IMG/VR virus record: IMGVR_UViG_2540341028_000013
Reading direction: 5' to 3' (one strand)
DNA: 33,437 nucleotides
DNA from: a virus
Taxonomy: Duplodnaviria > Heunggongvirae > Uroviricota > Caudoviricetes
In this document: in pieces, positions 2,342-33,437 of the stretch
How positions within the stretch are numbered: the stretch's first letter is position 1
Layout of the letters: every line of letters starts with the position of its first letter
The notes under the pieces: model-generated
Told to the model about the DNA's origin: nothing
Seen by the model: the letters and a program-made list of their open reading frames with translations, nothing else
The model's database searches: none
Program-made: the position numbers and the translations under genes

Positions 2342-2581
2342 GTGATGGGCAAAGAATATAAAACTCTCATTAACAAAGCACTTGAGCGTTTTTATTTTCG
2401 CTTAAGTGCATCAGGCGCTCATGCTGAACGTGCGGCCCGTGACTCATTGACCAGAGCAATCCGAAGTCTGTATGACGTGGCTTTTTACGCTGATGATCTG
2501 GATGCACTTAACGAACTTTCCGAGCTGATCTGTGCCGCAGTGGATTTGCCCCTATATTTCCAGACATCTGTTATCACTTAA
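2342..2581 (+). pseudogene. Hypothetical small ORF whose 3' end runs into the IS2 terminus
   Basis: 79-aa ORF; last 11 residues ([11 protein letters not shown]) are encoded by the IS2 terminal sequence beginning at 2541, so the native C-terminus is replaced. Confidence 0.3.
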
Positions 2582-2805
2582 CCCATTACAAGCCCGCTGC
2601 CGCAGATATTCCCGTGGCGAGTGATAACCCAGCGCACTATGCGGATGCCATTCGTTATAATGCTCGAACGCCTCTGCAAGGTTCTTTGCTGCCGTTAACC
2701 CGTCTGGTTTGGGCATGATACTGATGTAGTCACGCTTTATCGTTTTCACGAAGCTCTCTGCTATTCCGTTACTCTCCGGACTCCGCACCGCCGTGTTCTT
2801 CGGTT
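2541..2805 (-). mobile_element. IS2 fragment (265 bp of the insD-proximal end), truncated by IS911 insertion
   Basis: Near-identical (about 1 mismatch) to 32521-32785 of the IS2 copy at the window end; starts with IS2 terminus TGGATTTGCCCCTATATTTCCAGACATCTG; homology stops exactly where the IS911 left IR begins (2806). Confidence 0.85.
2552..2805 (-). pseudogene. insD: IS2 insD 3' fragment (C-terminal ~85 codons)
   Basis: Translation ...[59 protein letters not shown]... identical to the C-terminus of the full insD at 32532-33437. Confidence 0.85.
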
Positions 2806-2877
2806 TGAAGTGGCACACTGAATTTGGCCACCTGAACAGAGGTGATATGCTCACCTCAGAACAACACAGGTGCTCCA

Positions 2878-3180
2878 ATGAAAAAAAGAAATTTTAGCGC
2901 AGAGTTTAAACGCGAATCCGCTCAACTGGTTGTTGACCAGAAATACACGGTGGCAGATGCCGCCAAAGCTATGGATGTTGGCCTTTCCACAATGACAAGA
3001 TGGGTCAAACAACTGCGTGATGAGCGTCAGGGCAAAACACCAAAAGCCTCTCCGATAACACCAGAACAAATCGAAATACGTAAGCTGAGGAAAAAGCTAC
3101 AACGCATTGAAATGGAGAATGAAATATTAAAAAAGGCTACCGCGCTCTTGATGTCAGACTCCCTGAACTGTTCTCGATAA
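2878..3180 (+). CDS. IS911 OrfA
   Basis: 100 aa from ATG 2878; slippery heptamer A AAA AAG at about 3125-3131 near its 3' end, the known IS911 -1 programmed frameshift motif. Confidence 0.9.
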
Positions 3181-3206
3181 TCGGGAAACTCAGAGCGCAT
3201 TATCCT

Positions 3207-4046
3207 GTGGTCACACTCTGCCAAGTGTTCGGGGTTCATCGCAGCAGCTACAGATACTGGAAAAACCGTCCTGAAAAACCAGACGGCAGACGGGCTGTAT
3301 TACGCAGTCAGGTACTTGAGCTACATGGCATCAGCCATGGTTCGGCCGGAGCAAGAAGCATCGCCACAATGGCAACCCGGAGAGGCTACCAGATGGGACG
3401 CTGGCTTGCTGGCAGGCACATGAAAGAGCTGGGGCTGGTCAGCTGTCAGCAGCCGACTCACCGGTATAAACGTGGTGGTCATGAACATGTTGCTATCCCT
3501 AACTACCTTGAAAGGCAGTTCGCCGTGACCGAGCCAAATCAGGTGTGGTGCGGTGATGTGACCTGTATCTGGACGGGTAAGCGCTGGGCGTACCTCGCCG
3601 TTGTTCTCGACCTGTTCGCAATAAAACCAGTGGGCTGGGCCATGTCGTTCTCGCCGGACAGCAGGCTCACCATGAAAGCGCTGGAAATGGCATGGGAAAC
3701 CCGTGGTAAGCCCGGCGGGGTGATGTTCCACAGCGATCAGGGCAGTCATTATACGAGCAGGCAGTTCCGGCAGTTATTGTGGCGATACCAGATCAGACAG
3801 AGTATGAGCCGGCGCGGAAACTGCTGGGATAACAGCCCAATGGAACGCTTCTTCAGGAGTCTGAAGAACGAATGGATGCCGGTGGTGGGTTACGTAAGCT
3901 TCAGCGAGGCAGCTCACGCCATAACGGACTATATCGTTGGATATTACAGCGCACTAAAACCGCACGAATATAACGGTGGGTTACCCCCAAACGAATCGGA
4001 AAATCGATACTGGAAAAACTCTAACTCGGTGGCCAGTTTTTGTTGA
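3207..4046 (+). CDS. IS911 OrfB (transposase catalytic domain; expressed as OrfAB fusion by -1 frameshift)
   Basis: 279-aa ORF with DDE-type motifs (WCGDVTCI ... [10 protein letters not shown] ... WDNSPMERF); the orfB frame actually opens upstream of 3207, overlapping orfA. Confidence 0.85.
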
Positions 4047-4054
4047 CCACTTCA

Positions 4055-32000: not shown

Positions 32001-32189
32001 AAGGATAACTACTTCACTAAATTAATTATTAGAGAATATGATAATAATAAGTTAGTAAATGTCACTTCAGAGAATATCAAAAGTGACTCAGATAAATTCA
32101 AGCTAACTCTTAACTATGAGTTGAATATAGTATTTGAAGGAAACGCTGATTTAAAAATAGCTCACTCGCAAAGAGTGACATCAGAATAA
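29070..32189 (+). CDS. Large hypothetical membrane-anchored protein (1039 aa): about four N-terminal TM helices plus an ~850-aa soluble region of unknown function
   Basis: Uninterrupted 3.1-kb ORF in visibly AT-rich DNA; predicted TM segments around residues 50-70, 90-115, 130-155 and 160-190; no nucleotide-binding, nuclease or protease motif recognised by eye. Confidence 0.85.
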   Translation: MIGQFLSATEILAKNYVRNKMVKNPFYSNLKWNFIEKNIIRLTSSPVKSVLCISAFSFVLLYVGYLNELFIKNNLLHYFPFRHSLTEWQTTILSGQLTIIGIVYPLVIGLVSVLFQKKADRKIAQTAYQRYSGFMLAGLSGLFLSGFILLSVLIKTVFGSYLYGIACLISILWLLINIVLSIWFFIVSLEILDDVKRQIIIKRYIAFEIVMPHICNKISAKLRLYPIYQKHNYSNLEITQADYKGEYISVASSYSKEDELSLYHRPFQLTLNLINYQLKKKNHFASFVIGDNRTKETESTGKILFSVKNIKPDSLLIKILKQCFYRAPIKGGDFSVSLTMQAITADTYMYLRDSDLISFDNAISALINNFNNLCDLYFFQDDNTNNNFLLITTELFERSFQYEFSDEVYKISNNSMDKINLSERFFELCLWSGVRIINNRKHLISNELCIYMGITRSQWSILTEWFRNNQSLLNASLRSRYNRILRTYITVWEQYQESINFRFCNTENSDLFELFCKTQLQELPSMIIDATQTRDPSTIDTAVDLINRWQHSMNIDSHSVEKYSYKGQLFNPGFFISKKLNFNSDREWFNIAIINALTDMRICTCLYLTSRINTSDKLMTHYIKLILEGKLIDQTGGYETPTEEIDNASQLIKILIRICLWTWSENMEHNGWMNSLARRLRDYDKTDMVMGRVYSNVFDCGFIDMEQSWVQLLLIFSNKNDSVSKEIKEAIENNYITYREKQRLIGVLSKICNSIEYTKIKLTLTLDDLQTKKENLRKLLQEHINMLKKDLDMRLQDAAIDVHRLDSTARKTSEHLRKRIKKTLPLSLFKSIDFKQASDCFTKHKISIKIDKEPYAEGIESIPYINEGDIQADLILKDIQRIILSNLFSTGCSQHTVIEDFNMLIDHIKSSADLAGKLVLVMSKEIFQQYNRMLFDNPNLRELMRKNDDGSMNITTESGTRKVYFLPFVNQPFSLVVKDNYFTKLIIREYDNNKLVNVTSENIKSDSDKFKLTLNYELNIVFEGNADLKIAHSQRVTSE

Positions 32190-32198
32190 TATCTTTGA

Positions 32199-32228
32199 CG
32201 GCGCTCCTTAGAGTGCCGTTCGTTTATT
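32199..32228 (+). terminator. Rho-independent terminator downstream of the 1039-aa ORF
   Basis: CGGCGCTC-CTTA-GAGTGCCG stem-loop (8 bp with one G-U) followed by TTCGTTTATT, 10 bp after the stop codon. Confidence 0.55.
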
Positions 32229-32324
32229 AACTAATGCTAAAAATCATTATATAGAGAAAGTCATGTTTAAATCTTAGAGAATACAACCTAGAATAGTGTA
32301 AGCACTACAATAAGAGAGGTCGCT

Positions 32325-32520
32325 ATGTTCCGTTGTCCGCTTTGTGGCGCATCTGCCCGTATCCGCACCAGTCGTCCGGAAAATGATTCAAACACCGTGA
32401 GACAAAAGTATTATCAGTGTAACAATCTAGAATGCGGCGTATGTTTCTCAACACTGGAAGCCTTCCACAAATTCACTTCAAAGCACGCCTCCCCCATTCA
32501 CTCATCAGAGGGCATCCCGT
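32325..32520 (+). pseudogene. ogr: ogr (P2 late-gene activator, zinc-finger protein), 3' end disrupted by IS2
   Basis: MFRCPLCGASARIRTSRPENDSNTVRQKYYQCNNLECGVCF resembles P2 Ogr (MFHCPLCQHAAHARTSRYITDTTKERYHQCQNVNCSATF) with the four Cys conserved; the reading frame continues into the IS2 terminus at 32521, giving a foreign C-terminus. Confidence 0.8.
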
Positions 32521-33437
32521 TGGATTTGCCCCTATATTTCCAGACATCTGTTATCACTTAACCCATTACAAGCCCGCTGCCGCAGATATTCCCGTGGCGA
32601 GCGATAACCCAGCGCACTATGCGGATGCCATTCGTTATAATGCTCGAACGCCTCTGCAAGGTTCTTTGCTGCCGTTAACCCGTCTGGTTTGGGCATGATA
32701 CTGATGTAGTCACGCTTTATCGTTTTCACGAAGCTCTCTGCTATTCCGTTACTCTCCGGACTCCGCACCGCCGTGTTCTTCGGTTCAAGTCCCAACATCC
32801 GGGCGAACTGGCGTGTTTCATTAGCCCGGTAGCATGAACCATTATCCGTCAGCCACTCCACTGGAGACGACGGAAGATCGTTGCCGAAGCGGCGTTCCAC
32901 CGCTCCCAGCATGACGTCCTGTACTGTTTCACTGTTGAAGCCGCCGGTAGTCACCGCCCAGTGCAGTGCCTCACGATCACAGCAGTCCAGCGCGAACGTG
33001 ACACGCAGTCTCTCTCCGTTATCACAGCAGAACTCGAACCCGTCAGAGCACCATCGCTGATTGCTTTCTTTCACGGCCACTCTGCCTGTATGTGCCCGTT
33101 TCGATGGCGGTACAGCAGGTTTTCGCTCAAGCAACAGCGCATTCTGGCGCATGATCCGGTAAACACGTTTGGCATTGATCGCAGGCATACCATCAAGTTC
33201 TGCCTGTCTGCGAAGCAGCGCCCATACCCGACGATAACCATACGTGGGCAGCTCTCCGATAACATGGTGTATACGGAGAAGCACATCCGTATCATCAGTG
33301 TGACGACTGCGGCGGCCATCCATCCAGTCATCGGTTCGTCTGAGAATGACGTGCAACTGCGCACGCGACACCCGGAGACAACGGCTGACTAAGCTTACTC
33401 CCCATCCCCGGGCAATAAGGGCGCGTGCGCTATCCAC
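32521..33437 (-). mobile_element. IS2, partial (insD-proximal 917 bp; continues beyond the window edge)
   Basis: Begins with IS2 terminus TGGATTTGCCCCTATATTTCCAGACATCTGTTATCACTTAACCC and encodes full-length insD on the minus strand; matches the IS2 sequence as recalled. Confidence 0.9.
32532..33437 (-). CDS. insD: IS2 transposase InsD (OrfB)
   Basis: 301 aa; the window ends exactly at its GTG start codon; ...[32 protein letters not shown]...WLTDNGSCY... DDE-type catalytic region. Confidence 0.9.

Follow-up and report, generated by a model that had tools for sequence, protein, structure and literature searches.

The stretch of DNA analysed here, a window of 33,437 nucleotides, very probably carries an immobilised and eroding P2-type prophage between btuC and ihfA in a chromosome of the Shigella boydii serotype 4 / S. 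flexneri serotype 6 type, in which three IS3-family elements inserted independently and one-sided deletions anchored on IS ends then removed phage DNA. The prophage is defective: IS2, IS911, and IS629 have cut and partly deleted a P2-type element (Table 1). The features described in the original prediction are all present at the positions it gave, although several of the meanings attached to them are revised below.

Table 1. Features of the window, with positions counted from its first nucleotide.
Feature	Position	Strand	Remarks
attL core	59..83	.	AAAGAAAAAAGGCCGCAGAGCGGCC; 25-bp exact repeat
ORF of unknown function (145-146 aa, phrog_9415)	209..649	-	Intact; between int and attL
3' remnant of a 120-aa prophage ORF (phrog_4293)	646..822	-	5' part lost in second IS629-anchored deletion; ORF complete in L003, L019/L020/L022
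IS629 (IS3 family)	823..2132	+	1310 bp; intact orfA (877-1203) and orfB (1200-2090)
95-aa early gene (phrog_3800), 3' two-thirds	2133..2333	+	Residues 29-95; cut by IS629
DUF4754 early gene, first 65 codons	2345..2540	+	ORF runs into IS2 to 2581; Pfam DUF4754, E = 1.8e-41; site uninterrupted in L003
IS2 stub	2541..2805	-	IRR and last 254 nt of insD (IS2A 1331..1067)
IS911 (IS3 family)	2806..4054	+	Inserted in IS2; starts TGAAGTGG; stub ends 2805
parM, 3' part	4055..4660	+	Residues 119-319; residues 1-118 missing
P2-type late region	4661..28821	.	parR, ead, Q P O N M L, lysis, baseplate, tail fibre with invertase, tail genes to D; gene-by-gene tblastn
Cargo ORF	29070..32189	+	1039 aa; low GC; gpD-ogr slot; intact in window
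ogr, first 65 of 86 codons	32325..32520	+	ORF runs into IS2 to 32561
IS2, right copy	32521..33437	-	IS2A 1331..415; cut by window end

Borders and content of the prophage

The start of btuC lies just to the left of window position 1. A second copy of the 25-bp att repeat, attR, is found between hok/gef and ihfA (L005 12189-12213), about 1.1 kb past the window end. These borders fall outside the two IS2 ends, which had been thought to bracket the whole prophage remnant; about 2.4 kb of the remnant lies to the left of the left IS2, and relatives continue beyond the right IS2 with the 3' end of ogr, hok/gef, attR, ihfA, and pheT. The P2-like character of the element is indicated by GPO, P2-family capsid, GpU, GpE, GPD, and Ogr_Delta proteins encoded in P2 order (Pfam matches and PGAP names), together with the att repeat. 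The segment occupied the btuC-ihfA position in all 34 related Shigella-type loci examined, which were drawn from the 24 longest contigs per look-up, a sample that rare variants may escape.

Two P2-like (Peduovirus-type) E. coli prophages, those of VG38-53E1 (L003) and AH21E028, share the order int-C-early operon-A-parMR-Q P O N M L-lysis-tail-D-cargo-ogr-hok/gef with the window copy, at 94-98% identity. The VG38-53E1 prophage uses the same btuC/ihfA attachment site and contains the same cargo gene (99.9% identical), while the AH21E028 prophage has another attachment site and another gene in the D-ogr slot. DUF4754, parM, and ogr are all uninterrupted in the VG38-53E1 prophage, which thus supplies the empty sites that the original prediction had suggested looking for in related strains. 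The window aligns to this prophage in blocks at 1-822 (100% identical to L003 39908..39087), 2132-2540, 4055-4976, 5670-17933, and 21966-32520, and the gaps in L003 between the first three of these are 2348 and 4455 bp long.

Gene-by-gene tblastn and comparison with the intact relative show that int, the repressor gene (C), a cox-like gene, DUF4761, and the whole stretch between hyp37 and gpA, both included, are missing from the window prophage, as had been presumed for the early region. Because int, the repressor gene, and gpA are gone, the remnant is unable to excise or replicate. The late region is 97-98% identical to that of the intact E. coli prophages, from which it also differs in having at least seven broken late genes; point mutations have made pseudogenes of Q, N, M, R, E, FII, and D. 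The cargo ORF had no family matches in Pfam, NCBIfam, and further family searches.

Deletions anchored on IS911 and IS629

The three insertion elements had been assigned to three IS families, but all belong to one: their OrfB proteins score 205 (IS2), 310 (IS629), and 288 (IS911) bits against the NCBIfam IS3-family model (NF033516, cutoff 160), and PGAP names each of the elements IS3-like.

The element adjoining the IS2 stub is 99.6% identical over all 1249 nt to elements that PGAP names IS911 ("IS911 family"), and it has terminal inverted repeat arms as well as HTH_Tnp_1 and rve domains. Its flanks are GTT, in IS2, and AAC, inside parM, so that the expected 3-bp target duplication is absent, and the right flank is set off from the left by 4455 bp of phage DNA plus 1066 bp of IS2. 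The element is therefore IS911, but its present arrangement is not that of a simple insertion. Comparison with the intact prophage shows a deletion of 4455 bp that extends from the DUF4754 site to parM codon 119, in agreement with the predicted loss of the 5' part of parM.

IS629 is bounded by 25-nt terminal inverted repeats (92% identity between the arms) and is 97.3-97.9% identical over its full length to elements annotated as IS629. It is flanked by AAA and GTG in the window and by ATG and GTG in a related lineage. Comparison of these lineages with the intact prophage reveals two nested deletions at the left end of IS629, one of 2021 bp and then a further one of 327 bp, which have an identical right junction; int and the repressor gene were removed by these IS629-anchored deletions. 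Five other loci (L014, L015, L016, L018, and L021) retain int, the repressor gene, and the first early genes, and in L014, L015, L018, and L021 IS629 is located inside IS911 instead. There it provides a control, with a perfect 3-bp duplication, GGC, on both sides in L018 and L014. Since IS629 normally leaves a duplication, its absence in the window is meaningful, and the intact relative and the intermediate genomes attribute it to IS-anchored deletion. The earlier reading of the unmatched AAA and GTG flanks as a sign of IS-mediated rearrangement rather than simple insertion is thus borne out.

The deletions were probably made by the IS machinery, either by intramolecular attack of an IS end or through an IS-dimer or circle junction, with recombination between two transient IS copies as the alternative. 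In that alternative, the IS911- and IS629-adjacent deletions arose by RecA-dependent recombination between copies in the same orientation, with no transposase-mediated adjacent deletion, leaving a single hybrid copy with unmatched flanks. The end product would be the same by sequence, as IS911 and IS629 are full length and their flanks unmatched, and homologous recombination between IS copies is the usual mechanism cited for Shigella deletions (PMC7373316). RecA-dependent recombination would, however, require IS911 copies both in IS2 and in parM, and IS629 copies in the 95-aa gene, in int, and in the 120-aa ORF; that is, IS629 would have had to insert twice more within 2.3 kb, both times suitably oriented, and to recombine each time. 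The nested IS629 deletions have one right junction in common, each stopping exactly at one and the same IS terminus, and two copies of IS911 or of IS629 in the prophage were seen in none of the 20 loci covering its left side. We consider this route possible but appreciably less probable than deletion by the IS machinery.

The two IS2 ends

As predicted, nearly identical IS2 termini occur in the same orientation at 2541 and 32521. The direct repeat (2541-2805 versus 32521-32785) spans 265 nt with one mismatch, T versus C at 2622, and is too long to be due to chance. Each copy represents the transposase-distal end of IS2, which carries the IRR; both lie on the minus strand, hence in direct orientation, and both begin with the IRR terminus TGGATTTGCCCC. 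Compared with IS2A as annotated in E. coli K-12 (NC_000913 381260-382590, 1331 bp), the stub is 99.6% identical over 265 nt and the right copy 99.8% identical over 917 nt, which upholds the IS2 origin of the left segment; as predicted, IS911 cuts this segment off. The 301-aa transposase ORF of the right copy (32532-33437, minus strand) matches NF006918, "IS2 transposase TnpB", at 727.6 bits (cutoff 597) over positions 1-301 of 301. The elements thus resemble the IS2 of K-12 and Shigella (IS3 family, IS2 group) in sequence (99.6-99.8% identity), in their InsD-type transposase, and, in relatives, in having 1331 bp and a 5-bp duplication; they differ in that only the terminal 265 bp of the left copy remain and only 917 bp of the right copy lie in the window.

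Extension of the right IS2 and its target-site duplication, which the original prediction had called for, was possible in relatives. The element measures 1331 bp in six of 10 loci and 1319-1330 bp in the other four; CCCGT occurs on both sides in six loci, and the right side has one C fewer in the remaining four. The right IS2 is a simple insertion with a 5-bp duplication, CCCGT.

Translation confirms that ogr and the left ORF are each fused to IS2-derived codons. The left ORF, previously a small unknown, is a P2-type early gene of the DUF4754 family. The 3' end of ogr, which had been listed as removed, is instead displaced beyond the right IS2, and the Ogr_Delta zinc-finger domain (residues 3-49) is fully kept. 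The fusion proteins occur in 171 (ogr) and 107 (DUF4754) database blocks. This breadth makes it exceedingly improbable that a repeat-collapsing assembler created the repeat artificially by misplacing an IS2 end at one site. IS copies classically give rise to misassembly and the window does end within the right IS2, but both junctions are found in many independent assemblies, including the closed chromosome of S. boydii Sb227 (CP000036.1), and the left stub carries a lineage-specific SNP: the T at 2622 is confined to the IS629-deletion lineage, and elsewhere the stub is the same as the right copy at this position.

The two IS2 ends are probably unrelated insertions that share an orientation by a 1-in-2 chance. 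The alternative is that they form a functional unit, either a composite transposon, with the IRR of the left stub and the IRL of the right copy as outer ends and the right copy as the source of transposase, or a recombination cassette through which the 30-kb segment, cargo gene and all, is deleted or amplified. The geometry would permit this, as the stub IRR is intact at the outer edge (2541) and the right copy is complete in relatives, with its outer IRL; moreover, a 265-bp repeat of 99.6-100% identity is sufficient for RecA. However, the 5 bp beyond the two outer ends are not the same, being CGCAG at 2536-2540 on the left and CCCGT on the right, and as the right IS2 is flanked by a CCCGT duplication of its own, such a unit was not inserted as a whole. 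All 34 related Shigella-type loci have the same btuC-ihfA position, with no second genomic context. The junction predicted for deletion (DUF4754' followed by IS2 past the 265 bp) and that predicted for amplification (ogr' followed by the IS2 stub and IS911) are both absent from all fetched loci, and neither corresponding gene order occurs in any of the loci examined. A functional unit is accordingly very unlikely. We think it just as doubtful that the stub IRR and the ogr IS2 constitute a mobile or unstable cassette, whether by RecA-dependent loss or tandem amplification of 29,980 bp or by IS2 transposase pairing the stub IRR with the right IRL; if this were true, the orphan cargo gene of a dead prophage could change copy number or move.

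The suggestion that the direct IS2 repeats are a substrate for deletion or amplification remains mechanistically reasonable, but they offer only 265 bp of homology. RecA could use this repeat to delete 29,980 bp; nothing indicates that it has done so, and the recombinant single-IS2 product proposed for related strains was found in none of the 34 Shigella-type loci examined.

Order of events and relation to known Shigella genome decay

Comparison with other genomes shows a stepwise history. IS2 entered ogr by simple insertion, duplicating 5 bp, and a second IS2 would have entered the DUF4754 early gene in the same orientation. IS911 would then have inserted into the second IS2, 265 bp from its IRR, with loss of everything onward to parM codon 119, comprising 1066 bp of IS2 and 4455 bp of phage DNA including gpA. 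In one sub-lineage, IS629 entered the 95-aa early gene and a 2021-bp deletion from its left end then took the repressor gene and most of int; the lineage to which the window belongs lost another 327 bp at the same IS629 end. The steps are preserved in related genomes, with the empty sites given by intact E. coli prophages. None of the loci examined retains a full-length IS2 in DUF4754 or contains two copies of IS911, so the second IS2 insertion and the IS911 step are reconstructed from the end product only. It is the block counts, 171 versus 107, that suggest the order of the ogr and DUF4754 insertions, and these are confounded by gene calling and later deletions.

This is ordinary Shigella genome decay, a well-documented phenomenon (PMC7373316, PMC9943667), and published genomes, that of Sb227 for instance, already contain the locus. 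All Shigella species, with Sb227 among the genomes concerned, share an expansion of five IS that include IS2 and IS911, and these elements favour the formation of pseudogenes as well as rearrangements and deletions (Hawkey et al. 2020, PMC7373316). The locus, present in Sb227 (CP000036.1), has the same IS elements, pseudogenes, deletions, and variation of IS sites among strains, and differs in nothing substantive; the window is a single-locus illustration. IS629, an IS3-family element, is linked to gene inactivation and to genomic deletions, and the deletions adjacent to it span from a few nucleotides to more than 40 kb (PMC9943667). As far as the E. coli O157 studies are summarised there (Ooka et al. 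2009, Kusumoto et al. 2011, via PMC9943667), the IS629-adjacent deletions resemble those of the window in keeping a full-length IS629, in ending exactly at its terminus, and in constituting an "IS-adjacent deletion" polymorphism; here the host is Shigella and the nested deletions are small.

The significance of the locus beyond annotation is small. It is a clean, stepwise natural record of prophage immobilisation and erosion by IS3-family elements, through insertion, insertion of one IS in another, and nested one-sided deletions, and its junctions could be lineage markers in the S. boydii 4 / S. flexneri 6 group. The DUF4754/IS2 junction is present in all 20 loci covering the left side, IS2/IS911 in all of them but one, an 837-bp contig (19 loci), and IS911/parM in all 18 loci reaching that point. 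The IS629/hyp95 junction occurs in 15 loci and int'/IS629 in 12. Among the loci surveyed, the window shares hyp1'/IS629 only with AERO01000026.1, a sequence that matches window positions 1-8333 at 100% identity.

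Two IS2 ends within a P2-type prophage

A repeat finder returned one long direct repeat in the window (2541-2805 and 32521-32785, 265 nt), and direct comparison of the two copies revealed a single mismatch, T versus C at 2622. Both segments match the 3' end of IS2A as annotated in E. coli K-12 (NC_000913.3 381260-382590, 1331 bp) on the minus strand, and so represent IRR (transposase 3') ends of IS2 in direct orientation. The left stub stops at 2805 because IS911 begins at 2806. The features described in the original prediction are therefore all present: two near-identical IS2 termini in the same orientation, an IS2-derived left segment cut off by IS911, and fusion of each end to a host ORF (the early gene DUF4754 on the left and ogr on the right), with which the fusion translations agree.

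IS elements of the window and the first blocks aligned to L003, the intact prophage locus of E. coli VG38-53E1
Feature	Position	Strand	Details
IS629	823-2132		1310 bp; 25-nt inverted repeats; 97.3-97.9% identical to annotated IS629
Left IS2 stub	2541-2805	-	IS2A 1331..1067; 99.6% identity
IS911	2806-4054		1249 nt; 99.6% full-length identity to elements PGAP names IS911
Right IS2	32521-33437	-	IS2A 1331..415; 99.8% identity
IS2 transposase ORF	32532-33437	-	301 aa; NCBIfam IS2 TnpB 727.6 bits, cutoff 597
Alignment block	1-822		L003 39908..39087; 100%
Alignment block	2132-2540		L003 36738..36330
Alignment block	4055-4976		L003 31874..30953

The full extent and target duplication of the right IS2, proposed as a check, could be read in relatives. 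Beyond the truncated ogr, the element measures 1331 bp in six of ten relative loci and 1319-1330 bp in the remaining four; CCCGT occurs on both flanks in six loci, with one C fewer in the other four, and the gene order that follows is the ogr remainder, hok/gef, ihfA, and pheT. A full-length element with a CCCGT duplication and the rest of ogr beyond it indicates a simple insertion, and E. coli prophages supply the corresponding empty site. The 3' end of ogr, thought to have been removed, was thus displaced by IS2. Compared with K-12 IS2A, the ogr IS2 of S. boydii Sb227 (L006 10197-11515) lacks a 12-bp stretch and has 13 mismatches, and the right IS2 of the window has just 2 mismatches in 917 nt; between strains, this one ogr insertion has diverged or undergone conversion.

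Positions 4055-29000 are 97-98% identical to P2-type prophages of hundreds of E. coli genomes, and 28800-32520 (the end of gpD, a cargo ORF, and ogr) is 99-99.9% identical to five. Among E. coli complete genomes, no record covers at least 80% of window positions 1-5000, where IS copies alone were matched. One of the five genomes, VG38-53E1, has this prophage in intact form, located between ihfA and btuC, in the order btuC, two small ORFs, int, repressor, early operon (including DUF4761, a 95-aa ORF, and DUF4754), gpA, parM, parR, late genes, gpD, cargo, ogr, hok/gef, and ihfA. The aligned blocks run on to 32520 (L003 4105), and relative to this locus the sequence missing from the window amounts to 2348 bp at IS629 and to 4455 bp where the IS2 stub meets IS911.

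An exact 25-bp repeat, AAAGAAAAAAGGCCGCAGAGCGGCC, occurs at 59-83 and again between hok/gef and ihfA in relatives, approximately 1.1 kb past the window end. These repeats are the att sites of the prophage and bound the remnant; both IS2 ends therefore lie inside it and, contrary to the original claim, do not bracket the whole remnant. A composite transposon bounded by IS2 was also considered and rejected: the outer flanks are unlike (CGCAG versus CCCGT), the right IS2 is flanked by a duplication of its own, and every related locus has the segment at btuC-ihfA.

The prophage edges carry additional genes. A hok/gef-family toxin gene (L005, a relative locus, 11787-11927; approximately 0.4 kb past the window end), intact in most relatives, separates attR from the 3' end of ogr. 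Two small ORFs (phrog_9415 and phrog_4293; 209-822, minus strand; L003 38901-39700) lie between int and attL, a region that may be a second accessory slot; the 145-aa phrog_9415 ORF contains a 33-nt tandem repeat at 318-383. Look-up of a truncated 56-aa ORF (646-816) returned mostly intact prophages in which the ORF is split, as well as contigs stopping at the gene.

Nested insertions and deletions on the left side

The window had been described as carrying three IS families. All three transposases (IS2, IS629, and IS911) score above the NCBIfam IS3-family threshold of 160 (205, 310, and 288 bits, respectively) and PGAP labels each element IS3-like, so these are three different IS3-family elements. 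IS1, a member of another family, is present in this prophage in other strains and absent from the window.

Exact look-ups of the two fusion proteins returned 171 and 107 database blocks, with carriers including S. boydii serotype 4 Sb227 (CP000036.1; PMC8767353). We then surveyed the left side by exact 50-nt junctions across related loci. The DUF4754|IS2 junction occurs in all 20 loci covering the site, IS2|IS911 in 19 of the 20 with a left side, and IS911|parM in all 18 reaching that site. The junction of IS629 with the 95-aa ORF is found in 15 loci and that of truncated int with IS629 in 12, while the junction between IS629 and the truncated 120-aa phrog_4293 ORF is confined, among surveyed loci, to the window and one other assembly, of S. 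flexneri (AERO01000026.1, GCA_000193935.2), found through look-up of the truncated 95-aa ORF and 100% identical to window 1-8333. Five loci (L014, L015, L016, L018, and L021) retain int, the repressor, and the first early genes; in all of these save L016, IS629 lies within IS911 instead, with a perfect 3-bp GGC target duplication in L018 and L014. Where truncated int abuts IS629, the flanks of the element are ATG and GTG and the loss amounts to 2021 bp; in the window a further 327 bp are gone, up to the identical IS629 terminus. The T at 2622 is confined to the IS629-deletion lineage, other stubs having C, as does every right copy.

This distribution of junctions indicates a nested history. 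IS2 inserted into ogr and into DUF4754; IS911 would then have entered the DUF4754 copy, 265 bp from its IRR, before a deletion reaching parM codon 119 took away 1066 bp of IS2 and 4455 bp of phage sequence. The IS2 and IS911 insertions and the deletion to parM are common to every carrier seen. The lineages subsequently split, IS629 entering IS911 in one branch and the 95-aa ORF in the other, where a 2021-bp leftward deletion followed, with another 327 bp lost in the lineage of the window.

Two successive deletions sharing one junction and ending at the same IS629 terminus are the signature of IS-anchored (adjacent) deletion, which bears out the suggestion that IS629 lacks a matching target duplication owing to IS-mediated rearrangement. 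IS3-family elements transpose by a copy-out-paste-in route via circles or tandem dimers; the active junctions of these intermediates can target DNA close by, which produces adjacent deletions. Recombination between transient extra IS copies would leave an identical end product; we consider it an unlikely source of the deletions overall, as it is less economical for the nested IS629 events, although it stays viable for IS911. Deletions adjacent to IS629 ranging from a few nt to >40 kb have been reported (PMC9943667).

The 5 nt flanking IS911 are mutually reverse-complementary (CGGTT at 2801-2805 and AACCG at 4055-4059), with a weaker match reaching approximately 10 nt; this complementarity, spotted post hoc, may be due to chance. 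Among the top matches listed for the exact IS2(265)|IS911 junction in E. coli complete genomes, none is contiguous, the sequence instead matching as two pieces with 0.55-0.78 kb between them, so the junction is apparently not a ready-made composite widespread in E. coli.

Recombination between the IS2 ends

The 265 bp of homology shared by the IS2 ends is usable by RecA, with a predicted product lacking 29,980 bp, and it is a reasonable inference from the sequence that the ends could serve as a substrate for deletion or amplification of the intervening ~30 kb. Longer stretches of homology are available from the dozens of other IS2 copies that such genomes contain. Patterns written for the IS2 x IS2 deletion and amplification junctions matched none of the related loci examined, nor did any of these show the expected gene order; of the two states sought in relatives, the empty site was found and the single-IS2 deletion product was not. 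Truncated DUF4754 joined to IS2 beyond 265 bp, as in a deletion product or the ancestral state, had 0 matches in genome_contigs and metagenome_contigs, a result that carries no weight since the control DUF4754|IS2 30-mer also had 0 and these collections therefore lack this lineage.

This is an ordinary phenomenon, and published closed genomes already contain the locus. All Shigella species, Sb227 among them, show expansion of five IS that include IS2 and IS911, and these elements lead to pseudogenes, rearrangements, and deletions (PMC7373316); deletions associated with IS629 are on record for E. coli O157 (PMC9943667). The original prediction is a correct and careful reading that needs amending in three respects: how far the prophage extends, how many IS families are involved, and what became of the 3' end of ogr.

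Gene state and accessory features

Gene-by-gene tblastn against an annotated intact relative confirmed the presumed loss of the early region: int, the repressor, a cox-like gene, DUF4761, and everything from hyp37 to gpA are missing. IS elements truncate the 95-aa ORF (residues 29-95 left), DUF4754 (1-65), ParM (119-319, its 5' end being gone as described), and Ogr, which keeps 65 of 86 residues and a complete Ogr_Delta zinc-finger domain (residues 3-49). P2 Ogr may tolerate C-terminal truncation; a literature search on this point returned nothing usable. Frameshifts or stop codons occur in portal, capsid, small terminase, R, E, tail tube, and D.

In the relatives L004, L007, and L011 (2361-3270), the tail-tube gene runs into a chromosomal gene of Mannitol_dh_C type, and unrelated genes (bestrophin-like, methyltransferase, IS4) stand in place of everything in the prophage to its left, which suggests a far larger rearrangement in some of the lineages keeping the ogr-IS2 fusion.

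The cargo ORF in the gpD-ogr slot (29070-32189, plus strand, 1039 aa) has a GC content of 31-37% versus ~55% for the phage backbone and no match in Pfam, NCBIfam, PADLOC, or PHROGs. It is present in five E. coli genomes at 99-99.9% identity, annotated by PGAP as "MFS transporter" or hypothetical, and is IS1-split or fragmented in L004, L007, L011, and L013; in the P2-type prophage of AH21E028, the slot is occupied by a different gene.

Positions 18580-21942 look like an invertible tail-fibre segment, with a Gin/Cin-type invertase (21343-21939, plus strand), 30-nt inverted repeats (18580-18609 and 21263-21292), and a minus-strand stretch (19873-21238) that holds an alternative C-terminus for the fibre together with a tail-fibre assembly gene. 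Tail fibre gene H also contains three tandem 132-nt units (17847-18242), with 100%, 87%, and 61% identity to the first.
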